A stretch of 64,000 bases of DNA from an uncultured Lachnospiraceae bacterium (GCA_964591125.1 CAZQAC010000001.1:24674-88673); one strand, 5' to 3'; numbered from the stretch's first letter, positions 4,443-59,831 are shown. A program made the numbers and translations. The notes: generated by a model not told the origin, from the letters alone.

Positions 4443-4458
4443 TGATTTTTTCTCCTAA

Positions 4459-4662
4459 CTACTGTCTGAGTTTAACTTGCGAGAACAATGCGGCAAAATA
4501 GTTTTTAACACCCATAACAGCTCCCAAAAACATGCCGATAATCGCCCCGCCGACAAAAGTCAAAAAACAAATATACAATACTATACAAAAACCGGCTATT
4601 ACCGCCGCAATATATAATAACGTAAATGCAATTTGAAATAACGAATCTAAAAAACCTTCCAT
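4459..4662 (-). CDS. Small two-TM membrane protein (67 aa), operon member
   Basis: RBS GGAGGTG upstream. Almost entirely hydrophobic (two helices). Gaps of 16-18 nt to both neighbours. Confidence 0.7.
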   Translation of the reverse strand: MEGFLDSLFQIAFTLLYIAAVIAGFCIVLYICFLTFVGGAIIGMFLGAVMGVKNYFAALFSQVKLRQ

Positions 4663-4680
4663 CTTTCACCTCCAATAATA

Positions 4681-7449: not shown

Positions 7450-7465
7450 GGTATCCTCCTCCCCT

Positions 7466-8596: not shown

Positions 8597-8613
8597 ATAA
8601 AATTCTCCTTTCT

Positions 8614-11600
8614 TTAAAGTGTATTGACTTCTCGAAGTCTTACGTCGCATTTCTCGTCGGATACAAATATATTAAATTTCATATTCTTTGCAGTCGGAGC
8701 GAGCTTAACCGTATATTTTCCCGTATATTTATTTGAGAAAAAGCCTTTCTTCAACTGTATCGGCTCGATACGTTCAACAAGTTCTCCTTCCGTTTTATCG
8801 ATCGGACGAGGATATCCTTTTATTAAAAGCAAAGAAGGTATCGTAACTTCGGAATTTGCTTCGAATAAAATATTTAATTTAAATTGTTTTAACGCCGAAA
8901 CAGAATAATCGAGTTTATAATGAACGAATACTTTTTCTCTTTCGCCCAAAACTTCATCTATCACAAACGGCTGAGAATAAGATAAAATTCCGTTTAATCT
9001 AAATTCAGAAAAAACCGAAACGTAACTCAGCGTATTTGCTTTTAGTTTTAATTCAGCTTTGCCGTCTCGAACAAAATCGACGCGTTTATATCTAAAACAT
9101 TCGCCGTCATCCTCCATCGTTTTCGGGAAAGCTTTGTTGCTCACTTTCAAAACTAAATTTTCGGCTTTTTCGTTTATATTGCCCTTAACAACAAGCGAAC
9201 CCGACAGCAACTCGTATTCGAGCGCCTGACCTTTTATTGTATTGAAAACAATCGGCTCCGAAATTATAAATAATTGCTCGTTTTGAGCAACCGGATACAA
9301 CCAACCGATTTTTCCTTCGGGCAGATTAACAAGAGTATTTCCTTCTATATCCACAGACGTAGATAATTTCGTTAAACCTTTCGCCACCGTGCCAAAATCC
9401 GCAAGCCTCTGCGTTTTATTATACGGTAACGGTTGTTTGCTCTCGGAATAAAACATGCTTATCGCGTTAGCATTTTCGTCGCTGTTAAAAATATACTGGT
9501 TTCCGTGTGCAAATGTAATTCTTGCGTTTGTAATTTTATTTAATACTTTAAACGGGGTAAATACCGATCTGATACCTCGCGACAATATCTCATTTCCGTC
9601 GACGACGTATTCGCAAACAATTAAATATGCCGCTTCTCCCGAAACGTCGTAATCGGCAAAACCGGACAAATCGCAAGAAACAGATTCGCCGTCACCGATC
9701 TTCTCGGGGGCGATATTGCCTCTCTTCTTAAACACTTTGACAGCCTTGACGTTTTGCGGAGCTTTCCAGGTAACTTTTATACAATCATTAACTATTTCTT
9801 GATGGATCTGAGTAACCTCGGCGTAAATAATCGGCGCTTGAGTTGTAACTAATTTAGATTTAATTCCGCAACGATCGGCAAAAACCGCATAATAATATTT
9901 AGTCGCCGGAACGACTGCGAGATCTTCATAAAACATGATCGACAAATTTTCGGCAACAATCGATCCGTCATCCGGTCCGGTCGGACATACGCCTATTTTT
10001 TTAATTATCGTAAAACTTACGTTTTCCTGCGCAGCCGTAACCGACCATTCTATTTTCATGGAATTGCCGGAAATAAAAGTTCGCACTGAAGTCGGCGCAT
10101 TAGGAGGATATTTCTTTAAGATTGCTCTCGATTCTTCACAATCTTCGCATAATTCGTTAACTTTTACAGCATTCGCGATTGCCGTTTTAGAATCGTTTTT
10201 TTCCGCAGCCCCTTTTGCTATAGTAAGAAATTGACGAATCTTGCTCAGTTCCGTAGAAATCGAAGAAAGAAAAGCTGCCGTGCTGTTTGCATTATAGGTC
10301 AAATATTTTTGTTTTAACGTTTTTGCCAAAGCTTCCGCCGAAAAAAGCTTTTTTTCGGCAATGAGCTTCTTCAATTTTGCTTCGTCTTCTCGATAAGATT
10401 TACCTAGTTTTTCCTCTACCGCTTTAAGATTTTTAATCGAGTCTTCATAGCTTTTTATTTTCTTGCTTACAACCGAATTGGGCTTTGACAAATAATCGGG
10501 AAGAATATTACACAATTCAAGAAACGCGTTATCGAGTTTGGAAATATTCGGTTGCGATTGACTTAATAAAGCATCGATTTCGCTTGATTTTTGCTGCAAT
10601 TTTTCTTCCGTTTGCTTGGCGGCTCCGCAACTCGGACAAGTTTGCTTGTCTTTGGAATAAGCCATTCTTTCACCGCAATTCCAGCAAATGATTTCAAGAG
10701 GTTTACCGCAGTGAGGACAGCTTTTTGCGCCTTTTTTATAAATTTTGTTACAGTACGGACATGTATCGAAATTGCTCTCGTCTTCCTTGCCACTTACAAA
10801 CAACTTATAATAATTACAACCTACGGAAAGTATTTTTTCGGCTTCGTCAACGGTTACGCCAAGCGCGTCCACGGCAACCTGAACAAACTCCTCGTATTCT
10901 TCCATGGAAAGATTAAGACCGTAAACGTTTTTAAGTTTAAACTTTTCCCATATACTGTCTTTTAATTTTAAATAATAATCATAATTAGACCGATATTTTG
11001 CATCTTTATTTAGCAACAATTGCGTCATACTTCCGCACAGTCCGCTTATAGCTTGTTTTAATTTTAAATCGGCTGTTTTTGAAGCATTCGAATTCGCGGT
11101 TTTTATGGCAGCGGATATTTCGTCGCTTGTGGCATTAGCTTTAACCCCCAAAAACTCATATAAATCTCGCTTCTTTACCACTTTTAACATGTCTTCAACT
11201 TCTTTATATTTATTAAAAGGCATGCTTTTATCGATATTATCTATTATTTTAATACCTTGCTGCTGCAAATAATCGATTTTTGTTTTCAGCTCATCTAACG
11301 TAAAATAATTATTGGCTGCATGGCGAATGTTTTCCAAATCGCTAACCAAAATAAACTTTCGATTGGATTTCGTGCACATATCCTGAATTATTTCCACCGC
11401 TTCCGAAAGCTTGAATTCTTTTGCACGAGCAGCTTCCTCTTTACGAGCGCCTTTTTTCGGTTCGTAAACTTCACCGTTTAATTTAGCGTCGTTGCACATT
11501 ACTTCAAGAATATTTTCTCTAAGCTCCAAAAGTCGTTTTTTGTGCAAGTTAGTACCGCTGGCATCCCCAAGTATTGTTTTTACTTTTTGCTCGATATTCT

Positions 11601-11697
11601 TCGAATTGGTTTCAGTAATATCGAAAGCAAATGCAATAAAATAATTAAACTTCGGATCTTTTAATTCTTCCGCAGTTCTTTGTGCATGAACAGCCAT
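8614..11697 (-). CDS. 1027-aa multidomain protein: J-domain-like segment (no HPD), double zinc ribbon, coiled-coil region, beta-rich (Ig/FN3-like) C-terminal half
   Basis: RBS AGAGGAG. Residues ~177-240 (KKRDLYEFLGVKANATSDEISAAIK...) resemble J-domain helices I-II. Residues 313-357 are CPYC..CPHC..CWNC..CPSC. The C-terminal ~480 aa is rich in short beta-strand patterns. Confidence 0.8.
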   Translation of the reverse strand: MAVHAQRTAEELKDPKFNYFIAFAFDITETNSKNIEQKVKTILGDASGTNLHKKRLLELRENILEVMCNDAKLNGEVYEPKKGARKEEAARAKEFKLSEAVEIIQDMCTKSNRKFILVSDLENIRHAANNYFTLDELKTKIDYLQQQGIKIIDNIDKSMPFNKYKEVEDMLKVVKKRDLYEFLGVKANATSDEISAAIKTANSNASKTADLKLKQAISGLCGSMTQLLLNKDAKYRSNYDYYLKLKDSIWEKFKLKNVYGLNLSMEEYEEFVQVAVDALGVTVDEAEKILSVGCNYYKLFVSGKEDESNFDTCPYCNKIYKKGAKSCPHCGKPLEIICWNCGERMAYSKDKQTCPSCGAAKQTEEKLQQKSSEIDALLSQSQPNISKLDNAFLELCNILPDYLSKPNSVVSKKIKSYEDSIKNLKAVEEKLGKSYREDEAKLKKLIAEKKLFSAEALAKTLKQKYLTYNANSTAAFLSSISTELSKIRQFLTIAKGAAEKNDSKTAIANAVKVNELCEDCEESRAILKKYPPNAPTSVRTFISGNSMKIEWSVTAAQENVSFTIIKKIGVCPTGPDDGSIVAENLSIMFYEDLAVVPATKYYYAVFADRCGIKSKLVTTQAPIIYAEVTQIHQEIVNDCIKVTWKAPQNVKAVKVFKKRGNIAPEKIGDGESVSCDLSGFADYDVSGEAAYLIVCEYVVDGNEILSRGIRSVFTPFKVLNKITNARITFAHGNQYIFNSDENANAISMFYSESKQPLPYNKTQRLADFGTVAKGLTKLSTSVDIEGNTLVNLPEGKIGWLYPVAQNEQLFIISEPIVFNTIKGQALEYELLSGSLVVKGNINEKAENLVLKVSNKAFPKTMEDDGECFRYKRVDFVRDGKAELKLKANTLSYVSVFSEFRLNGILSYSQPFVIDEVLGEREKVFVHYKLDYSVSALKQFKLNILFEANSEVTIPSLLLIKGYPRPIDKTEGELVERIEPIQLKKGFFSNKYTGKYTVKLAPTAKNMKFNIFVSDEKCDVRLREVNTL

Positions 11698-11740
11698 GTT
11701 TTAACTCCTCTTTTGTATTTTGATTGTTTTTGGGGTTCGT

Positions 11741-14131
11741 TTAGAATTTAAATTTATTACCCAAAAAATTAGAATTCTTCAATTTTTGTTCTTTATGATA
11801 ACCAAATCTTTCAACGTTTGCAAGCCAAGCCGCAGCATTAACGACATATCTGTCCGTCCCCGCACTCTCCCATTTGCAATAAAGTCGAGTATAACCGCCA
11901 TCCGCCAACACGCGTCTTCCGTTATCGTCGCAACAAGCCGTAACTACGCCCAGATCGGAGCCGTATACCAAAGGCTTTAATATGCTTGTCGTATGCACGT
12001 CCGCGATTGTTTCTCCTTCATAAAAGTTTACCAATCCCGTTGTTATCGGATGATTTTCTATAATTCCGGGTTGTCCCGCCGTGTGCTGTATCGATATAAC
12101 CTTGCATCCGTGTAAATTACCGTCCATATATGTTCCGAACAATCTATCCAAAATAGCATTTGCATCCACATACCACGGATCATTGTCGCCCCACAAGTAA
12201 ATGCCGTGACCTTTTTGATAATAATCGTAAATAAGCTCTAAACATCTGTCGTCAATGTGACGCTTTACTCCGGAGATTACCCATAATTGAGAATCAGGTT
12301 CCGACAAAATACTTTTCAAAGACAAATACGATGGCGTTTCGCTATATTCTTGCACTTCAAAGCCTTTTCTTGCCAATGCAACTTTGGGCTTTCCCATAAT
12401 ATCATCATAAGTTCCGCTTGTTCCGTCATTGCCGAAATTCAAAACGATAATTTTATAGCCCTTAAACGCTCCGTCTTTCGCAAGATCGAATTCTCCGCCT
12501 TGCGGATTGCCGTATCGGTCGGTTGTAGTCGAAGGTATGTTGCTGATTCCCGCCCATTGAGTGTACGGGGTATTCATCGCTTGTTTATATTCTGCTTCCA
12601 ATTTATCGCAAATAGAATCCAAAGATTCCGTAATACTTACTCTTTGCACAGGCAAAGGGTTTCCGTTAGAATCTTTGGCGGTAACTTCCACAACGCCGTT
12701 TTGGTTGTATAAAAACGCAACCGAAAAATCATTTTGAACCCCTTTTTTCAGGTTGCTTAAGACATATTTATCCAAAAGCAAACATTCGTAAGGATTTTCG
12801 GATTCGCCTTGCAAAACATAAATCTCGGTAGAATCACTTTTGACGTTATACTTCTTTTCTTTTGCAATGCCGATTTTACTGTTTTTTTCAAGTATAATGC
12901 TGTTTATAAATTTAACACTCGTTTCGCTTATAGCCGAAGTAGCAAGCAATCCGAGACTGTGCGCGGTTATGTCTTTAATGTCGGAATTGTGAATAGTCAA
13001 AGCCATCGGTTGACTGCTTCCGTTTTTGGACGGTCCCATCAAAGTAATTACGTTGTTTACGCAAAGTTCGGCTTGCATTGCCGCACCGGTCGCAACAATC
13101 GTATCAACGTTTATATCTTTGGTTACAGGCGCTTTTCCGTATTCTTTTATAATCCTTTCTTTTACTTGCGGCATTCTCGTCGAACCGCCCACAAGCACGA
13201 CTTCGTCGATGTCTTTCCAACCGAAAGGACGTTGTTGTTGAACACTAATTTCTTCGAAACACCTATCTATAAGCAAAAAGGTTTCGTTTAATAAGCTTTC
13301 CGTTCTTTCTTCGAACATTTCCTTCGTAACTTCGTATTTTCCGCTACAACCTTCGCACGATGCCTGTATCAACGTTGTTGCAACCGACGAAAGTCTTTTT
13401 TTGGCATCTTCGCATTTAACCTGTAACTCTTTGAAATCATCCGAATGAGAACGAATGTCGATGCCGAACTCCGAATAAAATTGATCAATAACTTCGTTGA
13501 TCAAAACATCGTCCCAATTCATTCCGCCCAATTGATGATTACCGTTGGTTGCCGTTACGTTTATACCTGTTCCTTCAACGTGCGCGATAGTTACGTCAAA
13601 CGTACCTCCGCCGAGATCGTATACCATTACGTTTTTATTTTTATCGCCTGTCAAACCGTACGCGATTATTGCCGAAGTAGGTTCGTTGATAATTTTCAAC
13701 ACGTTCAATCCCGCTTTTTGAGCCGCACGCATTGTTGCTTCTCTTTGCTTATTGTCAAAATAAGCCGGAACGGTTATTACGGCGTTTTCGATCGTCACAT
13801 CGTTTGTTTGTTCGATATCCTTCTTCAATTCAGAAAGAAAAAGTCCTGACAAATCTTCTGCAGAATATTCCGTATCTTCCAAATATGCGCTATAACACGG
13901 GTTACACATCATGCTCTTATAAAAAGCAGCTGTATTTATATTACCGGATTTCTGTTCGTTTTTTGCGTCTTCACCAATCAACACGTTTCCGTTATCTAAG
14001 CACACAACAGACGGCGTTGTTTCTTTGCCCAAACTGTTTTTTAATACTTCGACACGATTATTTTGTTTAGAAAATACCGCTACAGCCGAATAAGTTGTTC
14101 CGAGATCTATTCCGACGTTTATTTTTTTCAT
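11741..14131 (-). CDS. Hsp70/DnaK-family ATPase with a ~260-aa non-canonical C-terminal extension
   Basis: Start at ATG 14131 ([24 protein letters not shown]); the ORF-track start 14143 is a TTG. Hsp70 signatures present: [30 protein letters not shown]. The C-terminal ~260 aa is unlike an Hsp70 lid. Confidence 0.9.
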   Translation of the reverse strand: MKKINVGIDLGTTYSAVAVFSKQNNRVEVLKNSLGKETTPSVVCLDNGNVLIGEDAKNEQKSGNINTAAFYKSMMCNPCYSAYLEDTEYSAEDLSGLFLSELKKDIEQTNDVTIENAVITVPAYFDNKQREATMRAAQKAGLNVLKIINEPTSAIIAYGLTGDKNKNVMVYDLGGGTFDVTIAHVEGTGINVTATNGNHQLGGMNWDDVLINEVIDQFYSEFGIDIRSHSDDFKELQVKCEDAKKRLSSVATTLIQASCEGCSGKYEVTKEMFEERTESLLNETFLLIDRCFEEISVQQQRPFGWKDIDEVVLVGGSTRMPQVKERIIKEYGKAPVTKDINVDTIVATGAAMQAELCVNNVITLMGPSKNGSSQPMALTIHNSDIKDITAHSLGLLATSAISETSVKFINSIILEKNSKIGIAKEKKYNVKSDSTEIYVLQGESENPYECLLLDKYVLSNLKKGVQNDFSVAFLYNQNGVVEVTAKDSNGNPLPVQRVSITESLDSICDKLEAEYKQAMNTPYTQWAGISNIPSTTTDRYGNPQGGEFDLAKDGAFKGYKIIVLNFGNDGTSGTYDDIMGKPKVALARKGFEVQEYSETPSYLSLKSILSEPDSQLWVISGVKRHIDDRCLELIYDYYQKGHGIYLWGDNDPWYVDANAILDRLFGTYMDGNLHGCKVISIQHTAGQPGIIENHPITTGLVNFYEGETIADVHTTSILKPLVYGSDLGVVTACCDDNGRRVLADGGYTRLYCKWESAGTDRYVVNAAAWLANVERFGYHKEQKLKNSNFLGNKFKF

Positions 14132-14162
14132 TTTTTTCTCCAATGTTTTTAACTAAAAGAGC

Positions 14163-14221
14163 AGGCTGCAAAACGATTTTACGATGATTACGATAATTCG
14201 GTAAAATATTTTTTGCAGCCT
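14163..14221 (-). promoter_or_regulatory. Intra-operon stem-loop in the 212-nt gap between the two Hsp70 genes (possible attenuator, partial terminator or processing site)
   Basis: aggctgcaaaa (14163-14173) pairs perfectly with ttttgcagcct (14211-14221), with a 37-nt loop. On the minus strand the stem is followed by gctcttttag. No classic U-run. Confidence 0.3.
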
Positions 14222-14343
14222 TGCCGATTTTAGTACGACTTTTTATTGTTAAGGTTAAAAAGATAAATAATTATAACTTTTTTCGATACATTACAAAACC
14301 GATAGCCGACGTCACGATTTTCACCGCAACGAAAATTATCAAA

Positions 14344-16002
14344 TTATTTTAATGTCATAGCGGAAACCGCAGCCATACCTTCTTGATTAGACTCTTCGCT
14401 CTTAAGTCTCGGATGCATTTCATATGTTTTATTGTTTTTCAAATCCGTCAATTTAAGAGTAATCAAACTATTTGCGTCAACATTCATCTCTATCGAAACC
14501 GGCGTATTTCCGGGAACCGAATTTTCAAGCTTAATAGGCTCTTCCGCATAAATCTCATTACATATATCAAGTTCCACAACTCTTTCGAGACTATCGCTTT
14601 CAAGAACAAGGATTTCTATCGAATCGATAGGCGTAGGGTCATTGGAAAACACCAACGAAAAATAATCCGCAGATGCACCGTAGGCCGGTTTTTGCGTATC
14701 TTTTATAATCAAATTGAGAACTTTATTCCTTTGAGCTTTTTGATCAAAAAAACGGAATCCGTAAGATTTTGTTACGTTTTCTATGAATTCGGTGTTTCCG
14801 ATTTTCGTTCCGCCGTTTTCGGTAGTCTCTATCAAAGAAAGAACGTTCGATAACGCGGAACCGGATTCCTGCGAAAGCGATTCGAGTATTTCTCCGTTTT
14901 CGTTTTGGAAAGAATATTCGTTGGCAACAAGAGCCGCGCCCATCGCAACAGCTTTATTGGGTTCGTACTGAGCAAGCGGTTTACCATATTCTTGTTCAAG
15001 CTTTTTCGATACCTGCGGCATATAAGTAGAACCGCCTACAAGAATAATTTCGTCGATATCGTTTATGCTCATGCTTTTTGCCGCTAACATTTCATTCACA
15101 AGCAATATGGTTTCTTCAAGCTTGCCGGATGTAACCTCGTCGAATTCTTGACGGGTTACCTCTATTTTCTGTCTTTGACCGTCGAAACTCGGAGTTAAAG
15201 ACGTCGATTCGCGGCTCGTAAGCATCTTCTTTGCTTTTTCGATATTTTCCGAAAACCAAGCGACGCACTCCGGATCGTTTTTCATTTCTGTCTCATCGCA
15301 ACCGGTTTCTTCGCAGAATTTTTCTCGAACGAGGTTTGCAAAAGCTTCGTCCCAATCCTTTCCGCCAAGCTGATGATTTCCGCCGGTCGTAATAACGCTG
15401 ACCGTTTTTTCTCCGCTCGCGATTTTAAGCTTCATAACCGTACAGTCGAACGTACCGCCGCCGAGATCGTATATAAGAACAGTTTTGTCCATGTCCTCCT
15501 TTCTCGAATCGGCATATGCGATTGCAGCCGAAGTCGGCTCGTCCAATATTCTGAGTACGTTTAATTTTTTTCCGTTTGAAAGTTCGACGTTTTCGCCGGC
15601 GAATTTAGTAGCGTTCTTTGCTTCGACTCCGAAATAAGCAGGAACTGTTATTACGGCACCGTCAATCTCTTCGCCTATGGCACTTTCCGCATCGGCAATC
15701 AACTTCTTCAAAATCAATGTCGAAACAGCCGCAGACGAATATTCCGTTCCGTTTGCAAAGAAACGATAATCAGCATTACCCATAAAGTTTTTTACTCTTT
15801 CGCAAAGACAGTCAGGATTCATTGCGCCTTCCGCTCTTGCCGTAGAACCAACAACCGCGCTTCCGTCCGGATCGAAATAAACGACCGAAGGAGTAGTTTG
15901 CTCGCCCTCCATATTGTCCACTATTCTTAAAACTCCGTTGTCATCGACATAGCTTACGCAAGAATACGTAGTTCCCAAATCTATTCCTATTTTCTTACTC
16001 AT
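14344..16002 (-). CDS. Hsp70/DnaK-family ATPase (552 aa, truncated substrate-binding region)
   Basis: RBS AAGGAGA. Signatures [31 protein letters not shown]. About 60-90 aa shorter than canonical DnaK and lacks the helical lid and EEVD-type tail. Confidence 0.9.
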
Positions 16003-39676: not shown

Positions 39677-42600
39677 CTAAATCTTTTTCAGGACGAAATT
39701 TCGGTAAATCATATTCGCGTTATGCTGATAAATATCCATACCTATAAGCGTTCGGTCGGGAATCGCCACCGAATATTTTTTAATTCCGTCCACGTAAACG
39801 GTAAGCGTCGAACCTTGCTTTATCATTTTTATTTTATGCACGCCTTCGTATATTTTGTCGACGGTCGCCGTTTCGGACGAATTCATTCCTTTGACGTCGG
39901 TAAACACGATCGATTCGAGATTATTTCGCATAAACCGCGTCACGTAGTTATCGTTTCCGCCGCTACCGTAAATGAACTTCACATGGAATTGCGCGCTCAT
40001 GTCGCGTATTCCGTTGTTTATCATCGTATAACTAAGCTCGAAATCGTCTACCGATAAACCGCGTATTTCTTTCCGTCCCGTACCCTCCAAACTTCCGTTG
40101 CCTTGCCAGAACTGATTTACGCGGAATTCGCGTTCGCCGTAAACTATATTTTCGCCTTCGAGCTCAGTCGTTTCGTCTTTATCGTAAATAGCCATCGCGT
40201 TTTTGAGCGATTTCAGGAACAAAGCGGGACGACGACTAATCCAATCGTAAGCGGAATTAATTTGATTTTCCCAAGCCGATACGTTTTGGTCTTGAGCCCA
40301 TCTTACCACGTTGTAATTTACAAGAGGACGAACGGATTCCGCTAATCTGCTCAAAACCGACGAAGCTTTTTCGTAAGAGAACGTCGTTTGCATAAGTTCC
40401 TGTGCTCTGGCATAAAGTCTTTCACGGAATCCTTCGTTGGCAAGGGCACGATTCATTAAATTATATTTGCGATACGTATATCTGCTCGAATAAGAAAGAT
40501 TGTTTTCGTATTCACCGTCCAGAGTACCTTTCAGTAATCCCATATCCAAGTCATGCAGAACGAATCTTAATTTTCCGTCGGTATAAACGTTTCCTTTCGC
40601 AGGTTTGCTCACTCTCCAACATCTGTGGTTGTTCGAGTTACCGACGAAATCCCAATTACCCGAATACGCCTGGACTATCATTAAATCGATAAGACTCGCT
40701 TCGTCCACGTATTTGCCGAAAAATTCATCGAATACCGCGTCGTCTGCAAAATTCTTTTCGGGATTATTCAAAAACGCATTCATTTCTTCGATAAAAGCCG
40801 TAGCGCTCTCTTCGTCGCCGTCCGAAACGTTATACGTATTTCCTGTATAATCGAAATATTGAACGTCGCCTTTCTTTACTTTATAATTGTCCTTGAAATA
40901 AACGTCGCTGTAATGTTCGCGCAAATAATACATACCCCAAAATTCGCCGTTAAGATAAACTATCGCAGGTCTTGCCGCAGTCGTTCCGACATTCAGCTCT
41001 TCGGCAAGCGATTGGAAAAACGCGTCGTTGAATCTGATCGAGGAATCGTAGCTACTGCCGCCGTTCCACAAACGGAAACGAGTGAATTCGTCCAGCTTTT
41101 CGTCTACTCCGGCGCAATTTCTGTCGCCGAATATTTCGAATTGCACCGCATCTTGCTTTTTACCGTTTTCGTCTTTATTGAAATTCAAATGCAACGTTCT
41201 TTGCGGACGTCCTCTGGACCAACCGCCGCCCACTTTTATTTGCGTGTTGACTGAAAAACTTCCGTCGACGTCGAAAAATTCCAGATTCGCGCGAGCTTTA
41301 TTGTCCGCCGCACTGTTGCCGCCGCCCGGCAAATATACGTTATTGTAAATAGACGTTCCTTCGCCGTTCGGAATTCCGTCAAACCAATTTTCTTCCGGCA
41401 TTGAAATGGAAAGTATAGGCACGTCGTCGAAATCATCGGTATCGAAAACAATATACGACTGTATCGCTCTTTGAATTACCGTACCGTATTCGTCCACCAA
41501 CGCTACGTTATATACGTATCCGAGATTTATCAGCGGATAATTTTTCCCGTTTTGTATTTTTTGAACGTAACTCGACGAATAGTTTTTATTCGAACCTGCC
41601 CACGCCAACTCTCCGTCTACCTGTTGCATCAACGAATAATCGCCCAAAGAACCCGTTCTTTCCTTTACGACGCGCGACGCATTCCATACTTTCGCGTTTT
41701 TAAGATCGTCCGCGACAGGACTGCAATCGGTCGTATAATATATTTTTGCTCTCTTGACGTCGGTAAAATAATTAACGGTTTGTGAGGTCTTATATCGTCC
41801 TCCTACAACGGAAGCGTAAATTCCGTCCGCTATTTTCGTATATAATTCCGGAACTTCAAGATTAACAGTTTTTACCGTTACCGCAAAATCGCAATGAACG
41901 CCGAGCGCTTCGACTTCGCATCTCACCACCGCAACTCCGTCCGCAACGCCTTTAACCGTTCCGTCCTCGATTTCGATATAATCCGCGCCCGACAAAACGG
42001 AATAAGTAAATTCGACGTCTTTTTGAGACGGATACAGCACGGGTTCGACGCGGACGATTTCGGTAGGTTCGAGCGTTATTCCCGATACGGTCAGCTTATA
42101 ACTGATTTTTTCGATCGTAACGAGAAATTCGATTGCCGAATTTTCGTAACCTTCGATTTTACACTCGACCGTCGCCGTTCCTGCTTTAAGACCGTAAATT
42201 CTACCGTCCTTTATCAAAACGCACGATTGTCCCGATTTAACGGAATAAACCACTTTCGCATTTGATTCTGCGTTCTCGATAACAGGATTTATCAACTGAC
42301 TTTCGCCCTCTGCCAAAAGAATATCCGACACCGAAACCTCCGGGGCTTTTGCCAAAACTGTTATTTTGATCCGCGCAGTTTTGCCGGATAATTCGTCGCT
42401 ACAAACAAGAACGGCTTCGCCCGATTTAACGCCTAACACCTCGTTCCCGTCCAAAATCGCACAAACGCCCTCTATTTCGAATTTATAATCGGCTTGAGCT
42501 CCGACCGGTTCGCTTTTAACGTTCGGAACGACGCTCTCTCCGACATAAACGGTTATGTCCTCCGCCACGATGCTCCAATCGGTGACTTTTACGCTAAAAC

Positions 42601-50360: not shown

Positions 50361-51152
50361 ATGAATATTTTATTTGCTAAAGGCAAATCGGAAACCAACA
50401 AAGTCAGCAACGAACGGCTTTACGTTAATAATTGCGGTTACTATCGCGATATAAAAGAAAAAATAAACACTCGACGAACGGACGGCAGAGTCGATTATCA
50501 CCTGATATTCGTCGGAAACGGGAAATTGCATTACGCCGACGCCGATCACGAAAACGGCAGCGTCGTTCTTTTTTTACCGGGCGATAAACAAGAATATTCT
50601 TATCTCCCGGAAGACAAGTGTCTTTATTATTGGGTTCATTTTTCCGGAACGGATGCTCGAGCCGTAGTCGAATCGTTCGGACTGCGCAGAGGAATTTTTC
50701 GCGTCGAAGCAAATAGAACGCAAATAGAAACGTTATTCCGAATGATGATCGATTCCTATACCGACAACCTTGAATTCAAGGAGCAAAACGCAGCGGCTTT
50801 ATTATACAGTATTCTTGCGCTGACCGCCGAAAAGAAACAACATCGCTCATCATTCGGGCGTGCCGTCAAGCTTGTGGAAAATTTCGAAGAGCCTTTATCC
50901 GTCGAACAGCTGGCTCAATCGTTCAACATGAGCGAAGGACATTTTATTCGCGCGTTCAAGCAAGCCACCGGTTATCCGCCATATGCATACAGACTTCGTT
51001 GCCAAACGGAGTATGCACGCGCGCTACTTACAAACACGACTCTATCGGTTTCGAAAATTGCGAAATTGAGCGGATTCGACGACCCTCTGTATTTTAGCCG
51101 AATATTCAAAAAACGCGTAGGATATTCACCGACGAAATATCGCGTTTTATAG
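50361..51152 (+). CDS. AraC-family transcriptional regulator
   Basis: Cupin-like N-terminal half. C-terminal HTH pair (ISKIAKLSGFDDPLYFSRIFKKRVGYSP). Confidence 0.88.
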   Translation: MNILFAKGKSETNKVSNERLYVNNCGYYRDIKEKINTRRTDGRVDYHLIFVGNGKLHYADADHENGSVVLFLPGDKQEYSYLPEDKCLYYWVHFSGTDARAVVESFGLRRGIFRVEANRTQIETLFRMMIDSYTDNLEFKEQNAAALLYSILALTAEKKQHRSSFGRAVKLVENFEEPLSVEQLAQSFNMSEGHFIRAFKQATGYPPYAYRLRCQTEYARALLTNTTLSVSKIAKLSGFDDPLYFSRIFKKRVGYSPTKYRVL

Positions 51153-51931
51153 TCAAACAAACGGCTTGTAACGTAATTTTATCAATTCGAAACACAAAGC
51201 AATTTTGTCCTGTTTTTAAATATTTTCGATTGTCGATCACGTAAAAAAATTTCTGCCAAACTTCCGTTTGCACGATATAAAATATAGACGTAAACCAAAC
51301 CTCTCGAAATGCATCGTTACGCCGCTGAAAACGCCCGTTCGAAATCACGCATACAGAATCACAAAAAAGCAAGTTAAAAAATCAAATTCTACGTTGCGAA
51401 TTATAAAAATTAAAGCACTTTGTTTTTACGCGAAACAAAAGGAAAAATTCAAAATCTCCGCACCAATGCGACTTGAAAAATTTTTTGCAGTTAACAACTC
51501 ACATAAAACATTTTTCATTTTCACAAACACAATCGCAGACAAAGCGTTCGAACTACAGATAAATAATTCTCGAGGCTTTTTAATAATACATTGGACAATC
51601 TCAGTAAAACATTCTTTGCTCGTCGTTTTCCCATTCATGTAAATTCGACATAAAAACAATGCAATATAATTTTAGTATTCTCGACAGTGGTCGTCTACAA
51701 TCATTTTAGGTCTAAAAAATATCATATCTATTCTCAATAGCAAAAACCAAACAACAGTTATTTATTTTATAAAAACAAAATAACGACTATCTCCAAACAG
51801 ATTTAACAAACACGTCGGCAAATATAATTCTCCAACAAACAAACGCAGAGTAGTAGCGCAAACTGACAATCGAGCTACGAAATCAAAATTTTTAACGCCG
51901 AATAAATCTTAAATTGCTTTTTTTTGGTATT

Positions 51932-52624
51932 TACGAATTTTTTTCGTATATATTATTATATTTCCTATCATTTATACGCGACATAAAGCATTTAATAATC
52001 ATTTTTCTATTTACTGTATACTATCGTTATCAAAAATAAGGTAGATTATTACCGAAACGATTTACGAACTTTTTTCGTAAATCAAAATACTATCAAAATT
52101 TGAAATTTTATTATACGATTATGCATTATTTGTTGTTTATATTTAATTCTGCGACTTGATTTTGATGTGGTCAATTCTTTATTTTACGAATTTTTTTCGT
52201 ATGGATTTCGATCTCTAATGGAGAGGATTAATATATTATTATACAGGTTTTCTTTTACTGTATCATTACAAACTCAAATACACAAATTTTGATTGTTTAA
52301 TATCATAAAAAAAGAAAGCCGATTATTAAGTTTGCCTTCTTCGAAATCATAAATTATTTACGAATTTTCTTCGTAAAAACATATAATTAATTAAAATAAT
52401 CAATTTACTATACACATAACAATAATATGTATTTAAATTATTGCTAAATAATCGACATTTTATCTTGTTCGTTTATTGATGTTTACGAATTTTTTTCGTA
52501 TAATGTAAATATTACCAAAATCCACCTATTTATTGTACAATTAATATTATGTTTGTTGTTTATATTTAATTTTACAACTTAATTTTAATTTGTCCGAATA
52601 ATTGTATTACGAACATTTTTCGTA
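51932..52624. repeat. Left array: six copies of the 17-bp palindrome TACGAA-N5-TTCGTA in ORF-free DNA
   Basis: Copies at 51932-51948, 52063-52079, 52185-52201, 52359-52375, 52484-52500 and 52608-52624. Spacings are 131, 122, 174, 125 and 124 bp. The copy at 52063 extends to 10-bp arms (GATTTACGAA/TTCGTAAATC). Confidence 0.85.
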
Positions 52625-53582
52625 AGCCATTACAACATTTCAGTAGAAACAGAAACATGTTAAAATATAAATCGATATTCTCAAACAAAAAAAACGATAT
52701 TTCAACACAAACTTTTCTTATGTTTTTTTTGGAAAAAATTTTCCCCTCAAATCATTTTAAAAATATTTTCTAATATAATCATCATAACGCTACAAATATA
52801 TAATCAAATTTTTTCAGCGACATTTTAACAATATAAAAATTAAACCGCAACGAAAATTCAGTAGAAAATTTAAATTATATTCGTCACAAAATTCATACGA
52901 ATTTACAGAATTTTAAAACAGCAACACATGTAAAAATTATATAAAAAACATAATTGCGGCAACACAACAGCATATCTTTTCAATCGATTTACCAAAGTAC
53001 AAACGATTTTAACCGCGCAAATTTAACGAAATCAGCCGACAATATCACTCTTGTGCCGGTCAAATACTTTCACACAAAAAAACAGCAGCGAAAATATCGA
53101 ATTTGATAAAAGTCCAAGATGCAACAAAAATTTCCTTAAATTTCAAGCTAAATCACTCTTTCTCACACGATTTATATGCCCCAAAATATCACATTAATTA
53201 TTTACATTTATTCAACCATAAAATGAAAACAAAACCCAAATAAAAAGTCCCAAAAGAGAGTGGGCATAATATTATAAATCGAACAAGAAAATCCTATTTT
53301 TATTTCTAAATTACCATTATACTTATTATATCATAACTACTGTGTAATGATTTAAGTATACAAATTATATATAAAATTTTTCAAAACTTATTTTTACTTA
53401 TTTTTCAACATTTTACAACTTAAACAATAGCTAAAACACAAAGAAATCCGGTTGTTTTGTTATTATATCATAACTGTTTATGTAAAATATATAACAAATA
53501 TTCAGTATTAAAACATATATAATATCGTTTTTTATTCTTATTATATATTCTTTTCTGTAATAAGACTTAATCAGTGGGGGAC

Positions 53583-53688
53583 TTATCCACATTTTATCAA
53601 CATTTATCATTTAATTGTGGATAAAACTCTTTCAATCGACTAGTTTTGTATTTTACTTATCCACATAACATTAGTACAATGTGGATAA
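53583..53688. promoter_or_regulatory. Cluster of four perfect DnaA boxes (oriC core candidate)
   Basis: TTATCCACA at 53583-53591 and 53657-53665. The complement TGTGGATAA at 53626-53634 and 53680-53688. A very AT-rich tract lies immediately upstream (53490-53570), and a GTGGGGG cluster abuts box 1. Confidence 0.8.
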
Positions 53689-53918
53689 CACAATTATATT
53701 ATTTCCAAAAGAATTGCACAATTATTAACTAATTTTTAAACGAATCGTTTCTTCGAATAATTTTTCTTTTCTAAATTCCGTTGAAAAACTTCAAGATTTC
53801 AACTAAATTAGCCAATCATCTAACTTTTTTGTTGTTTCAATCGAAAACTTAATAATATAATTATAAGTTTTCGATTGCACTGTTTTTATAGTTAAACTAT
53901 ATAAATCTTTTATCTTCT

Positions 53919-53934
53919 TGTTTCACGTGAAACA
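53919..53934. promoter_or_regulatory. parS site (perfect 16-bp palindrome)
   Basis: TGTTTCACGTGAAACA matches the Firmicute parS consensus TGTTNCACGTGAAACA. Confidence 0.85.
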
Positions 53935-54045
53935 TATGTTTTCCTTATTAAAAACACAACGATTATCATATCATAACTATTTTTATTTTAAATGAATAAT
54001 TGGTCGACTCGATATTTGATTCATTATCCTTATTTGTCGCCATAA

Positions 54046-54061
54046 TGTTTCACGTGAAACA
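54046..54061. promoter_or_regulatory. parS site (perfect 16-bp palindrome)
   Basis: Second identical TGTTTCACGTGAAACA, 127 bp from the first and about 360 bp downstream of the parB stop. Confidence 0.85.
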
Positions 54062-54358
54062 ATTTTTATATAATGTAACCGAATATATTTACACTTTAAA
54101 CTATAAACCTACTCTAATAACTAAACAGACCCATTATTTCCTCATAAAACCCGCTTAAATTGATTTAAGTCTGATAAAAACACCCTATAATAATATTTGC
54201 ACTGTGAATAAAAACAATATGCTAATATTATTAAAATGAATGCATATAATTTGACAAGAATATAACCAAACGTATAAATATCAAAACCTTTGAGAATAAC
54301 AAGGAAAATGATCGCAAAACAGTGTAAATAGATAATCTACAAAAGAACTAAAAATATA

Positions 54359-54419
54359 TAAGCACATAATAAAAGAACAGAACGCTTTTTTAACGTTCTG
54401 TTCTTTTATTATGTGCTTA
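54359..54419 (-). terminator. Very long perfect hairpin terminator directly after parB
   Basis: A 26-bp perfect stem (54359-54384 pairs with 54394-54419) with a 9-nt loop, starting 3 nt after the parB stop. A T-rich tail follows on the minus strand. Confidence 0.8.
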
Positions 54420-54422
54420 CCT

Positions 54423-55331
54423 TTAATCTTTATTTCTTTCTAAAAACTCAAGAATTTCTACTATCCTATCTAAATCATCACGATTATAATAATCAATGTA
54501 TATGCGTCCTTTGTTGTCATTACCAAGCGCCGAAACTTTTGTTGCAAATACTCTTTGCATTCTACTTATCATATCTTTCAATTCCAAGCTTTGTTCAGGC
54601 TTAACTTTATCTGCATGTGAATTTAACGTTTTCTTTATGAGTTTTTCAAAATCACGAACAGACAAATTTTTAACAATGGCTTCATTTGCAAGCTGCAACT
54701 GCAACAACGTATCGCTTACAACAACTAAACATCTTGCGTGTCCCGCCGATAATTGATTTCGCGCAACCAAATCCATGACAGCAGGTGAAAGAGAGAGCAG
54801 ACGCAACGTATTTGCGACAGCCGGTCTACTTTTACCTATACGATCGGCGACTTGTTCTTGCGTATAATGATATTCATCCATCAACTGTTTAATTGCCTGC
54901 GCAGTCTCAATCGGATTTAAATCTTCGCGTTGCAAGTTATCGATTAATGAAATTTCCTTAACTTGCTGCGGCGTGTAATCTCTAACAATTGCAGGAACGC
55001 TCAATAAACCGGCACGTTTTGCAGCACGCCATCTGCGCTCACCCGCTATAATCATGTATTTACCGTTAGGTTGTTTTACTAAAATCAATGGCGAAATAAT
55101 ACCATGCAACCTAATGCTGTTCGCCAATTCAACTAAAGAAGCTTCGTCAAACGACTTACGCGGCTGATTAATGTTCGGTTCTATCAACGCAAGACTGATT
55201 TCCGTTGCCGCATTTGTTTCTTCTGTGGATTTTTCTTTAGACGTCTCATCTAAAATATCCAAATCGTATTCTTGTTCAGAATCCGATAATAAAGCTCCTA
55301 AACCACGCCCTAAACCTTTTTTTATTGCCAT
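54423..55331 (-). CDS. parB: Chromosome partitioning protein ParB/Spo0J
   Basis: MAIKKGLGRGLGALL N-terminus. ParB box IIAGERRWRAAKRAGL. HTH region. 302 aa. Confidence 0.93.
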   Translation of the reverse strand: MAIKKGLGRGLGALLSDSEQEYDLDILDETSKEKSTEETNAATEISLALIEPNINQPRKSFDEASLVELANSIRLHGIISPLILVKQPNGKYMIIAGERRWRAAKRAGLLSVPAIVRDYTPQQVKEISLIDNLQREDLNPIETAQAIKQLMDEYHYTQEQVADRIGKSRPAVANTLRLLSLSPAVMDLVARNQLSAGHARCLVVVSDTLLQLQLANEAIVKNLSVRDFEKLIKKTLNSHADKVKPEQSLELKDMISRMQRVFATKVSALGNDNKGRIYIDYYNRDDLDRIVEILEFLERNKD

Positions 55332-55466
55332 AATTCCTCCGAATTTTAGTTATGTTTTAATAACTAAATATATTTAATAGTAAAATTTTTAAAAAGTCGA
55401 ATTTTATACACTATTTAAAGATAATTAACACAAAAAAATAAGCTGGAACCGAAAAAATAAACTAAA

Positions 55467-55694
55467 TCAGTTATCAACATTGTTTTTTAAGCCCAGCAAA
55501 TAGTCACTAGAAGTTCGAAAAAGCTTAGCCAAGCGCACAATATTAACTGCATCGGGGTAACTTTTGCCCAATTCCCAAAGCGATATCGTATCCTGAGTCG
55601 TTTTCATAAGATTAGCAAGCTGGCTTTGCGTTAAATTATTCTGTTTTCTAAATTGCTTTATCTTGCTACCGATTTCCAACATAGTTTTACACAC
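55467..55694 (-). CDS. Small XRE-family HTH protein (71-75 aa)
   Basis: IKQFRKQNNLTQSQLANLMKTTQDTISLWELGK is a Cro/C1-type HTH. The ORF-track start 55694 is a GTG. The ATG at 55682 (MLEIGS) is the likelier start. Confidence 0.8.
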   Translation of the reverse strand: MCKTMLEIGSKIKQFRKQNNLTQSQLANLMKTTQDTISLWELGKSYPDAVNIVRLAKLFRTSSDYLLGLKNNVDN

Positions 55695-55717
55695 CCATGA
55701 AGATGAATTTCATATAT

Positions 55718-55746
55718 ATTATACGATATTTTTTCGTAAAAATCAA
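55718..55746 (-). promoter_or_regulatory. Near-consensus promoter of the XRE HTH gene with the 17-bp palindrome filling the spacer
   Basis: The minus strand reads TTGATT (55746-55741), a 17-nt spacer, then TATAAT (55723-55718). The palindrome TACGAAAAAATATCGTA (55738-55722) occupies the spacer and overlaps the -10 by 2 nt. Confidence 0.65.
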
Positions 55747-57219
55747 GTCTTTTGAAGCAACTTTCGTTCAATTCTCAAGTAAAAATTCAAATCCGTAATT
55801 ATGCGTCGACAACAGTATCGTAATAACAACTTCAAAGCTCAAAACAAGCAAACGCAATAAATTTTTCGGCACAAATAAAAATTATCATAGTATCGTAAAA
55901 AATAAAACAGGACATTTTTGCTTTTTAAATCAAGCATTATCAAAAAATACATTGACAAAAACTAATGCAAAATTACACATGCTCAAACACATTGAAACGC
56001 TATAAACATGTAATATATTGAAAATAATTTTGGGTTAATAAAATCACAAAAATTAATCTGCACAATTATTTCGGACAGAAAATAAATCGTACGCCCCAAA
56101 CCGAGCCGCATGCCTTCGTTAATATAAGTAGTTCTCGTGCATTTACGATTGCATTTTAAGATACGTTAATGTCAAGAGTAGCACTGCCAAAAAAGCCACA
56201 AATATTGCGAATATTTTACGTAATACTTTCATCTGTGGAAACCAAAAAACACAATTATTCCCGAAAAAAACACGAAACTCACAACAATATAAATTGCTCT
56301 TGTCGGCTCGTTAACGTGAAAAATACCCAATAAAACTTGAGGAATAAGCACAATAACAAAGAAAAAACAGAAAGAAATTAAAAAAACAACTCCAAAAATA
56401 ATGTTTGTACCTTTCTTAAATTGTCGTAAGTTTATAACACGAAAAATCGCCGGATTTTATTACGAATATTTTTCGTATCGATAAAAAAGCAACTATTTTT
56501 AAGCATTTTTTAGACTTTTTGCTCTTTTTTCGAACAAAGCGTTATATAGAGCAAAACATGTTTTACGAATATTTTTCGTACAGTTTTATTTTCGAAGCAT
56601 ATAAAGCCGAATAATTCTTAACCTTAAAACTTCGAAACGCTCAATGCTTTTAACACGCTCTTTTCGGCTACATTGACGCAAAGATTGTTCAATAAATCCG
56701 AGTAATGAGCACAATAGAATAGAAAATAGATGCAAATAAACTACCGCATCAACTCAAAAAACAAAGTATATCCTATTCTCCAAATATCATTAAGTTTATG
56801 ATGCGAAAAGTCGCCGTTTTCTATACGAACATTTTTCGTATATGCAAAAAAATAGCTATTTTTCAAGCGTTTTCAATACTTTTTATGGCATTTTTGAGGA
56901 AAACAAGATAATAAAGAAAAACATATTTACGAATATTTTTCGTGCTATTACAATGAAATCATTGCCAAATTCTTATTTCGAATCAGATAGAATAAAGTAA
57001 ATATACACTTTATTGAAAAATGAATAATTGACTCAAAAAAATATCGAAAAATCTACTCAAAAAACCGAATTTTTTCGCACGAGAATTATTCGTATTGCAC
57101 GATAAATCTTCGTAAATACTAAAAAACAATGCAAAAACGTGTGTTTTTGAATGTTTTTCGGGCTTTATTGCTTAAACCAAATTTACGTTTAAATTACATA
57201 AATACGAATATTATTCGTA
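55722..57219. repeat. Right array: about seven copies of the TACGAA-N5-TTCGTA palindrome in ORF-free DNA
   Basis: Copies at 55722-55738 (TACGAT half-site), 56461-56477, 56564-56580, 56824-56840, 56928-56944 (last base G), 57098-57114 (degenerate) and 57203-57219. A shortened variant lies at 57066-57077. Confidence 0.8.
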
Positions 57220-58238: not shown

Positions 58239-59342
58239 ATGAAATTCAACTGCAACGGCTACGACCTCGCCGACGCCGTAAACAAGGTCATAAAAGCGGT
58301 AGGGGCAAAAACGGTCAATCCCGTACTCGAAGGAATTAAAATACAAACATTGGAGGGTAGCATTAAGCTTACCTCTACCGATCTCGAACTCGCGATAGAA
58401 AAAACGATTCCGGCAGACATAACGGTAGACGGCATCGCCGTTGTTCCCGGAAGACTGTTTGCGGAATTCGTAAAGAAGCTCAATACCGAAAATATAGAGA
58501 TAAGCGTTTTCGGCGATAATAAAATGAAAATACGTTATCGCGATTCGGTCAGCGAAATAAATTGTTTGCCGGCAGACGAATATCCTGAAATCAAACCGTT
58601 AAAAGACGTTACAACCTTTACAATGCTCGGCAAAAATTTGCGCGATCTTATTAATAAAGTTTCGTTCTGTGTCTCATTGGACGAGTCTCGCCCGTTATTG
58701 AAAGGCGTACTGCTAAATGTCGAAGAAGGGGAAATTACCGCAGTGGCAACCGACGGATATCGACTTGCCAAATACGTCAAATCGCTCGAAAAATGCGATT
58801 CGAACATTACCGCAGTCGTTCCGGCACGAAGCCTGAACGAAATATCCAGGCTTATCGAAGACTCGGAACAACCGATAGAAATAGCAATTCAAAAAAGTTA
58901 TCTTGCCGTCGATCTCAAGCACACGGTAATAACGGCAAGAATTCTCGAAGGCAATTATATCAATTACAAACAAATCATTCCGCAATCTTTCGAAACAAGC
59001 GTTACGATTGCCAAAGACAGTTTTGAGGACAGCTTGGAACGTGCTATATTGCTTGCTCGTTCGGATCGCAACAATCTCGTTAAATTCGACGTACATGAAA
59101 ATATTATGGATATTTCGTCCAACAGCGAAATAGGCAACATCAACGAACATATAGACGTTAAACTCAACGGTCGCGATTTAGCCATCGCATTCAATGCAAG
59201 ATATTTTACCGAACTTATTAAATATATAGACACCGAATGTATGACAATCAATTTCAACGATCCCGTCCAACCTTGTACCGTCGTCCCGACCGGCTCGGCA
59301 GAAGATCTTTTGTATCTCGTTCTTCCTGTACGAATGATCTAA
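58239..59342 (+). CDS. dnaN: DNA polymerase III beta sliding clamp DnaN
   Basis: 367 aa. MKFNCNGYDLADAV...VNPVLEGIKI...TDLELAI...ATDGYRLA...PVRM is typical of DnaN along its whole length. Confidence 0.93.
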   Translation: MKFNCNGYDLADAVNKVIKAVGAKTVNPVLEGIKIQTLEGSIKLTSTDLELAIEKTIPADITVDGIAVVPGRLFAEFVKKLNTENIEISVFGDNKMKIRYRDSVSEINCLPADEYPEIKPLKDVTTFTMLGKNLRDLINKVSFCVSLDESRPLLKGVLLNVEEGEITAVATDGYRLAKYVKSLEKCDSNITAVVPARSLNEISRLIEDSEQPIEIAIQKSYLAVDLKHTVITARILEGNYINYKQIIPQSFETSVTIAKDSFEDSLERAILLARSDRNNLVKFDVHENIMDISSNSEIGNINEHIDVKLNGRDLAIAFNARYFTELIKYIDTECMTINFNDPVQPCTVVPTGSAEDLLYLVLPVRMI

Positions 59343-59378: not shown

Positions 59379-59831
59379 ATGAAAAATCAAACGAATAAGC
59401 TGTTTTACCTCAACGATAATGATTTACGCTTTGTATGTGTGTCGGCTTTATCGGTTGCGATAAATGCGATAAAGAAAAAATACGACGTAAGCATAAAAGC
59501 CGCAAGTAATTTGGGCGGCGAATGGGTATTTACTCCCAACATAGACGAAATAAGCGTCGAAATCCCTTATTCGGGAGACGAAATGCGAGTTTGGATCGAT
59601 TCTTGGAATCTTCCGAATCATCCGCGTTGGGGTAGCGATTGGTTCGAACCCGCCACAAGCGGAGCAAATGTTTTTCATAAAAGAACATTTTATATCGCGC
59701 CCGACGGAAAAAGAGGACCAGGAAGAAACCCGATAAAAGAAAAAGGCGAATACATTATAACTTGTGAAGCCGATTCGACGTCCGATTTGTGGAATTGCAG
59801 ATTCGCTCATTTAATTATAATTATATATTAA
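59379..59831 (+). CDS. Hypothetical 150-aa protein (Trp-rich, no recognised motif)
   Basis: ORF followed by a strong terminator. No clear Shine-Dalgarno sequence. Its composition looks like that of a coding region. Confidence 0.5.
   Translation: MKNQTNKLFYLNDNDLRFVCVSALSVAINAIKKKYDVSIKAASNLGGEWVFTPNIDEISVEIPYSGDEMRVWIDSWNLPNHPRWGSDWFEPATSGANVFHKRTFYIAPDGKRGPGRNPIKEKGEYIITCEADSTSDLWNCRFAHLIIIIY

Follow-up and report, generated by a model that had tools for sequence, protein, structure and literature searches.

In the 64,000-nucleotide stretch of DNA from an uncultured Lachnospiraceae bacterium analysed here (GCA_964591125.1 CAZQAC010000001.1:24674-88673; hereafter the window, with positions counted from its first letter), a 17-bp palindrome, TACGAA-N5-TTCGTA, was found in two arrays around the presumed replication origin. 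The arrays bracket a block that holds a small helix-turn-helix (HTH) gene with its operator and promoter, parB, two parS sites and four DnaA boxes. The HTH gene (55467..55682, minus strand) was assigned to the XRE/Cro-C1 type with Pfam and encodes a protein of 71 aa. It is followed on the same strand, after a gap of 135 bp in which no terminator-like site was detected, by parB (54423..55331, minus strand), encoding a protein of 302 aa with the Pfam domains ParB_N and HTH_ParB and the cytidine triphosphate (CTP)-binding motif GERRWRAA. Both parS sites (53919-53934 and 54046-54061) are exact copies of TGTTTCACGTGAAACA, and the DnaA-box cluster at 53583..53688, presumed to be the core of oriC, consists of four exact TTATCCACA boxes and one box with one mismatch. 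Array B (51932..52624) lies on the downstream side of parB and contains six perfect 17-bp putative operators at 51932, 52063, 52185, 52359, 52484 and 52608, spaced 122-174 bp apart. Array A (56461..57219) lies on the upstream side of the HTH gene and contains seven sites, namely singles at 56461, 56564, 56824, 56928 and 57203 and a double site at 57078/57098. The arrays, the parS sites and the DnaA-box cluster are given without strand.

Ten exact copies of the palindrome were present in the window, all of them at 51932-57219, against an expectation of 0.04, and none of 100 shuffled sequences reached ten. Copies with one mismatch were found at 55722 and 56928 and copies with two mismatches at 57078 and 57098, giving 14 copies in total in this region; the remaining 58.7 kb of the window held no credible copy. 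The preliminary description of the window had reported about 13 copies. The palindromes were indeed there and every coordinate it gave for a real site was correct, but the copy at 57078-57094 had been overlooked, and the 'shortened variant' listed at 57066 (CCGAATTTTTTCG), in which the invariant core is missing, is not a site. The copies at 57078 and 57098 together form a 20-bp double site, which was also detected by Tandem Repeats Finder (TRF). The site model was pooled from six array-bearing loci and comprised 128 half-sites. The ACGA/TCGT core was invariant in all of them, and all 30 single mismatches fell at arm position 1 or 6. The central five bases were A/T-rich and the flanks in general carried little information; the 10-bp arms noted earlier at 52060-52084 are real in that copy and confined to it. 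A rescan of the window with ACGA-N7-TCGT returned 15 matches in comparison to 2.7 expected for the whole window, and 14 of the 15 lay in 51932-57219. The fifteenth (40360-40374) is located within a 1219-aa CotH-domain open reading frame (ORF) and contains GC in its spacer. With its G at arm position 1, a base seen in none of the 128 half-sites, it was treated as probably a chance match. At 56206, on the side of array A, a palindrome with a broken core was identified as a decayed relic.

The window has two non-coding stretches here, of 2.8 and 2.5 kb, together about 5 kb. In line with the ORF-free, A-rich setting described before, no ORF of at least 50 aa was present in 51660-52953, few were found elsewhere in the island, and stop codons were dense in all six frames; the GC content of the non-coding stretches was 23-33% in comparison to about 40-47% for the genes on either side. 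The six-site array is separated from the DnaA boxes by about 950 bp of AT-rich DNA (52625-53582). On the right the gene-free island is bounded by dnaN (58239..59342, plus strand; Pfam), and the left array has an AraC-type gene (50361-51152, plus strand) at its outer edge. The cumulative GC skew reached its minimum at about 58-60 kb of the window, which is consistent with a chromosomal origin in the region. The ParB protein has the features of canonical chromosomal ParB proteins, with ParB_N, HTH_ParB, a GERRxRA CTP motif (IIAGERRWRAAKRAG) and two exact parS sites nearby. An identity as Noc was considered and rejected, with a model score of 217.7 against a cut-off of 315.

The HTH protein is a bare XRE/Cro-C1 domain, matching PF01381 with 48.4 bits (cut-off 23) and PF12844 with 47.3 bits (cut-off 30.2). 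A length of 75 aa, counted from an upstream GTG, had been proposed before; homologues start at the ATG at 55682, which gives the 71 aa used here. In the AlphaFold2 (AF2) model, with a predicted local distance difference test (pLDDT) score of 85, helices span residues 4-14, 19-25, 30-38, 45-54 and 59-62, and residues 30-38 (QDTISLWEL) form the recognition helix. Based on sequence matches in the PDB, the nearest solved relatives are ICEBs1 ImmR and the N-terminal domain of P22 C2 (E = 1e-5). The promoter of the gene (55718..55746, minus strand) reads TTGATT-17-TATAAT. As already pointed out in the preliminary description it contains one copy of the palindrome, which at 55722-55738 (TACGAAaaaatATCGTA on the minus strand) occupies the promoter spacer and overlaps the -10 element. 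An operator in the spacer and -10 region of the HTH promoter was found in four array lineages (the window, L001, L007 and L009), with near-identical sequence and position. In all four the promoter operator is mismatched at the same inner position (ATCGTA); many of the array sites are perfect. The palindrome thus overlaps the core promoter of the HTH gene itself and this pairing is kept across orthologues, as in autoregulated repressor-operator pairs.

The preliminary description had suggested looking for the same arrays at oriC in related genomes, and they were present in every locus whose HTH protein is at least 81% identical to that of the window (L001, L002, L007-L010 and L019-L025; uncultured Clostridia of the gut, 'Candidatus Neoclostridium' or 'Clostridia bacterium' where named). 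Many of the comparative counts given in the following are not phylogenetically independent. In each array locus the order is an array, a gap of about 0.5-1 kb, the operator and promoter, the HTH gene, parB, two to three parS sites, the DnaA-box cluster and a second array, with 8-20 core sites per locus and gene-free flanks of 2-4 kb. The HTH gene and parB are on the same strand in all array lineages, separated by 94-432 bp, and the HTH operator is located 1.2-1.8 kb from parS. The DnaA-box cluster adjoins parS in L001, L007 and L009 as well. The seeming loss of parS and DnaA boxes from L002 was traced to a scaffold gap of 100 N. Arrays of 8-20 sites were seen only where the HTH gene lies directly upstream of parB, parS and DnaA boxes. 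We also scanned approximately 186,000 species-representative genomes, among which the window's own genome is not included, for two exact sites 85-115 bp apart. Six stretches were found, three of them belonging to the array clade (two Neoclostridium contigs and Clostridia HGM11391). The rest were a GC-rich Chloroflexi pair and a gammaproteobacterial 42-bp tandem repeat, both unrelated, and a short Neisseriaceae-binned contig (L016). In two outgroup loci (L058 and L059), with ParB proteins 70-72% identical to that of the window, parS was present, the upstream HTH gene and the arrays were absent and the intergenic regions were of ordinary length; DnaA boxes were seen in one of the two. The HTH gene beside parB, the arrays and the enlarged non-coding DNA therefore occur together in the genomes compared.

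The HTH family is widespread in uncultured Clostridia, and the recognition-helix stretch TTQDTISLWELGKSYPD was invariant across the family down to 55% identity. A distant set of 19 loci (203 kb) carries HTH homologues that are 46-65% identical to the protein of the window and are encoded away from parB, with no arrays. In these loci 23 of the 24 core sites were found in the 150 bp preceding the HTH gene, with -55 and -26 as the typical positions. The genomic contexts were unrelated, with the homologues found beside hpf and clpC, ychF, rplJ or veg, or at a prophage border. Most of the distant loci lacking an exact core (L005, L026, L055 and L011) had a near-match at about -55 with one change in the core, for example AACGAG-N5-TACGTA. 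Homologues with a different recognition helix (helix 3) had no sites at their loci. Because gene, recognition helix and operator covary across contexts, the adjacent 71-aa HTH protein very probably binds the palindromes, and the earlier suggestion that they are dimeric-repressor operators bound by this protein gains support from comparative genomics. The family was absent from IMG/VR viral contigs, in which one chance match to a double site was found. Some distant homologues were observed at the edges of prophage-like or integrative blocks with portal/terminase, serine recombinase and S24 peptidase genes, located at 7299-7538 and 11110-13991 in L005/L006, at 1-6210 in L054 and at 8362-15000 in L055.

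Conservation of the arrays was largely restricted to the palindromes. Between the two strains L009 and L010 the arm bases differed at 2 of 132 positions, in comparison to 388 of 3972 aligned intergenic positions outside sites and spacers. Array B appears to have come from an old tandem duplication of a three-site unit of about 424 bp; the unit copies are 58% identical, versus 49% for shuffled sequence, and all arm bases are intact. Taken together, the units of the window (about 424 bp and, in array A, about 363 bp) have decayed to 57-61% identity in comparison to 45-49% in shuffled controls, with every arm base intact. TRF over the window reported just the 20-bp double site; decay has gone too far in the 363-bp and 424-bp units for it to detect them. 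When the non-coding DNA was compared between species with BLASTN, near-nil similarity was obtained besides short stretches next to parS and one 50-bp match that contains an operator. The only motifs enriched in the gene-free flanks were the palindrome, the DnaA box and parS. From these patterns the sites appear to be under selection.

The double sites have a fixed geometry. All 22 of them in six loci are exactly 20 bp apart, and the 3-bp linkers vary. Perfect sites were less frequent among paired copies (7 of 38) than among single copies (26 of 55; Fisher p = 0.005, kinship ignored), and less perfect paired sites would be the usual signature of cooperative double operators. The other spacings cluster at 103-109, 112-115 and 124-127 bp, which would fit 10, 11 and 12 helical turns; this is suggestive only. 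In a Rayleigh test on spacings of 80-180 bp, R was similar for periods of 10-11.5 bp, with the spacings non-independent through shared ancestry. The fixed double-site geometry favours a cooperative structure acting in cis and is compatible with titration of the binding protein.

Several further observations concern the surroundings of the arrays. The DnaA-box cluster adjoining parS and parB is the only one in the window and lies 4.5 kb from dnaN. No dnaA precedes dnaN, and a DnaA-family ORF was absent among the ORFs scanned in the 64 kb. DnaA boxes beside parS, together with dnaN lacking a neighbouring dnaA, amount to an arrangement of the origin that is unusual for a Firmicute. A second group of DnaA boxes is located immediately upstream of dnaN in L007. 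Relative to dnaN, the HTH-parB-parS-DnaA-box block of the window is inverted in comparison to the L007 and L002 lineages: dnaN adjoins the array upstream of the HTH gene in the window and the array downstream of parB in L007 and L002. The breakpoints of the inversion could lie inside the arrays. A repeat, TATATCATAACT, occurs three times near the DnaA boxes and parS (53327-53338, 53464-53475 and 53967-53978; 0.45 expected), and its 10-bp core was found twice in the L007 island, at 8618 and 9907; it may be another origin element. In both outgroups an AraC-type regulator is encoded directly upstream of parB (L058 6948-7850; L059 7710-8597), and the AraC-type gene may be an ancestral neighbour of parB that moved away as the island expanded. 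The ORFs edging the island, at 51268-51642 (124 aa, TTG start) and 59379-59831 (150 aa), had no Pfam or NCBIfam matches. The former may not be a real gene, and the gene-free zone would then begin at 51153. Elsewhere in the window, 2931-16002 on the minus strand carries large genes with DO-GTPase1/2 (Double-GTPase) domains and a gene for an HSP70-like protein; this run looks like a conflict or defence-type cluster unrelated to the palindromes.

At the level of genome sequence, the comparison across loci establishes that the sites form a family, that this family is tied to the HTH gene, that the architecture is conserved and that the double sites have a set geometry. For binding, for co-transcription of the HTH gene with parB and for the function of the arrays, we infer the following. 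Dimers of the 71-aa XRE/Cro-type repressor would occupy the 17-bp palindromes. Through the operator between -35 and -10 the protein would repress its own promoter, and probably also parB, which lies downstream on the same strand. The remaining 13 sites are mostly non-promoter singles and 20-bp doubles, mostly about 105-125 bp apart, on either side of the block. Once occupied, they would make up a nucleoprotein 'fence' of multiple dimers to the left and right of the origin and centromere, acting in cis. The likeliest task of such a fence would be to delimit the ParB-parS complex, by serving as roadblocks or latches for ParB-CTP clamps that slide from parS, and to keep outside transcription out of the island. 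The arrays would also unavoidably buffer free repressor, which would tie HTH-parB expression to the copy number of the origin. We regard this explanation as a whole, a self-regulating repressor with operators amplified into a cis-acting fence that delimits ParB, as standing slightly on the probable side. A cis-structural rather than a promoter role of the arrays appears rather probable from the comparisons, and their specific employment as a ParB boundary is doubtful.

A ParB clamp is brought to a halt by stably bound proteins, and for both kinds of barrier there are precedents on plasmids. On the F plasmid, ParB is blocked by RepE-iteron complexes located about 3 and 4.5 kb away from parS (PMC7725951), and on RK2 the small HTH protein KorA latches the KorB clamp following a slide of up to 1.5 kb from the loading site (PMC11790492). 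By analogy, the arrays might be programmed boundaries or latches for ParB-CTP clamps in a chromosomal counterpart of KorA-KorB, in which the HTH protein would confine the complex to the 3-5 kb island and capture ParB at its own promoter to co-repress the HTH-parB operon. We consider this specific form unlikely. Several points weigh against the explanation given above. The array-bearing genomes form a single clade, so the link between arrays and the HTH-parB pair is effectively one evolutionary event. The sites were counted over 64 kb in this genome and 12-19 kb in its relatives, all of them uncultured metagenome-assembled genomes. The spacing classes of 105, 115 and 125 bp could have been inherited via tandem duplication rather than selected. 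Judging from the model, nearly all of the 71 aa belong to the HTH domain, which would leave little surface for oligomerisation or for contact with ParB. Pfam and NCBIfam scans of the HTH protein returned generic XRE models only, with no similarity to KorA. Finally, roadblocks confine F-plasmid ParB incompletely (PMC7725951).

The main rival, which is compatible with the fence model, is that the arrays act as a titration sink. Decoy arrays would soak up the repressor. Being replicated first, they would double at initiation and transiently derepress HTH-parB, which would couple the supply of ParB to the firing of the origin, or a high level of repressor would simply be buffered. There are 8-20 decoys to one promoter site, the arrays adjoin the DnaA boxes, and the mismatched and presumably weaker promoter operator, with its ATCGTA arm in four lineages, would compete with stronger, often perfect array sites. 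Decoys need no set geometry, yet the doubles are invariably 20 bp apart, and the arrays always flank the block on both sides instead of lying anywhere near the origin. A sink would also leave the 2-4 kb of gene-free DNA unexplained, and as the purpose of the arrays we think it improbable. Control of replication initiation, with the HTH protein around oriC altering topology or the access of DnaA and thereby gating initiation, would accord with the presence of sites around the DnaA-box cluster in every array lineage, and it is well established that transcription factors can regulate oriC (PMC4285127). However, the sites of the known regulators overlap or interdigitate with DnaA boxes or the DNA unwinding element (PMC4285127), whereas in the window no site comes closer than 0.9 kb to the boxes (52608-52624 versus 53583-53688) and in the relatives the smallest distance is about 0.2-0.9 kb. 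No overlap with DnaA boxes was found in any lineage, and the sites were on this ground rejected as those of a Spo0A/CtrA/AdpA-type origin regulator. The distant HTH homologues are ordinary autoregulators, most of them far from parB/parS or a DnaA-box cluster, and gating of initiation is accordingly a quite improbable role.

It could also be proposed that each site controls a small unannotated transcript, either a small RNA or a micro-ORF. Site 52484 does lie in a good promoter, TTGATG-17-TATAAT, in the same register as the operator in the HTH promoter. This is just one of 13 sites, however, and promoter-like matches in the island were at the level of shuffled sequence (46 in comparison to 39.1 +/- 6.1). 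A gathering-threshold Rfam scan of the whole window gave no matches, no small ORFs were conserved between species, the shared peptides being merely translated palindromes, and the flanks were unconserved among sites and species, with no recurrent -35/-10 seen around the array sites. Because there are no hidden small genes and the flanks lack recurrent promoter elements, the arrays are most readily read as binding-site arrays and not as promoter arrays, and the proposal is very improbable. Of the roles raised in the preliminary description, a centromere-like or nucleoid-organising array, a titration sink and control of transcription, the present results thus speak against promoter control at most sites. 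That the palindromes belong to another binder (Spo0A, ParB/Noc or an unlinked regulator), or that they are selfish elements or iterons of an integrated replicon, is more remote still and can be regarded as extremely improbable. Spo0A had been named earlier as the alternative binder, and the CGAA of the half-site does resemble the 0A box; ParB-family genes are also nearby. The G required by the 0A box, TG[TA]CGAA (PMC4285127), was present in none of the 128 half-sites, with T found in 117 of them. Moreover, parS is a distinct and separately conserved motif, and the palindrome follows the HTH gene into loci that lack parB. Elements resembling repetitive extragenic palindromic (REP) sequences or miniature inverted-repeat transposable elements (MITEs) were rejected, as only the 17 bp and not the flanks are conserved, the other 58.7 kb holds no credible copies and the HTH family is missing from viral contigs. 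Iterons were rejected because they are phased direct repeats next to a rep gene: the locus lacks such a gene, and its sites are palindromic, with spacings of 20 or about 100-175 bp. A type Ib or type II plasmid centromere was likewise discarded, with no ParA or ParM gene beside HTH-parB in the window and its relatives.

The components of the locus are familiar ones. The XRE protein is ordinary, its promoter operator is textbook autoregulation, and both operator arrays and roadblocks are known. What is new, in the sense that we did not find it described in the open-access literature, is a dedicated array on both sides of a chromosomal oriC/parS island; the searches of open-access papers agree in this with the preliminary description, which knew of no origin-flanking array of this type. 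How bacteria limit the spreading of ParB and insulate the origin and centromere from neighbouring transcription is an open question, and the barriers described so far are incidental roadblocks. If the arrays are indeed boundaries, this would be the first case of a bacterial centromere delimited by a dedicated, genetically encoded system. The module is compact, conserved and readily transplantable, with a 71-aa protein and 17-bp sites, single and double, that flank parS and oriC. The locus also offers a clean natural case in which an autoregulatory operator has been multiplied into an array outside promoters.

Among known systems, Cro/CI-type repressors (the N-terminal domain of P22 C2, 434 repressor and Cro, ICEBs1 ImmR) share the HTH_3/XRE fold and the size of the HTH protein. 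They likewise are dimers on AT-centred palindromic operators that overlap their own promoters, with cooperative adjacent operators, features that are predicted here. Unlike in those systems, the gene is chromosomal and has no partner gene of a lytic/lysogenic switch, and the operator has been amplified 8-20 times in non-promoter DNA around oriC. Small-loop repressosomes have operator spacings of 113 bp (gal OE-OI) and 92 bp (lac O1-O3). The spacings of about 105-125 bp in AT-rich DNA found here fall in the same range; in contrast to gal and lac there is no regulated promoter inside the putative loops, and the 71-aa protein has no evident tetramerisation domain. Spo0A, CtrA, AdpA, MtrA and HP1021 are, similarly, sequence-specific regulators with multiple sites in the origin region (PMC4285127), but the two arrays described here have a different motif and are about 0.2-1.7 kb away from the DnaA-box cluster. 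The RepE-iteron system of the F plasmid has protein-bound repeat arrays a few kb from parS that lower the density of ParB beyond them (PMC7725951), a similar scale of distance. Iterons are direct repeats that serve replication and form an incidental, one-sided barrier, whereas the operators here are palindromic and two-sided. The pairs KorA-KorB and TrbA-KorB of RK2 differ from the present locus in that the HTH protein has no KorA/TrbA homology, the locus is chromosomal with canonical parS and ParB, and most sites are outside promoters, so that the likeness is one of gene layout only. In that layout a small HTH gene is placed just upstream of the gene for a ParB-family CTPase, on the same strand, and the operator-parS distance of 1.2-1.8 kb here is within the sliding range of about 1.5 kb of KorB (PMC11790492).

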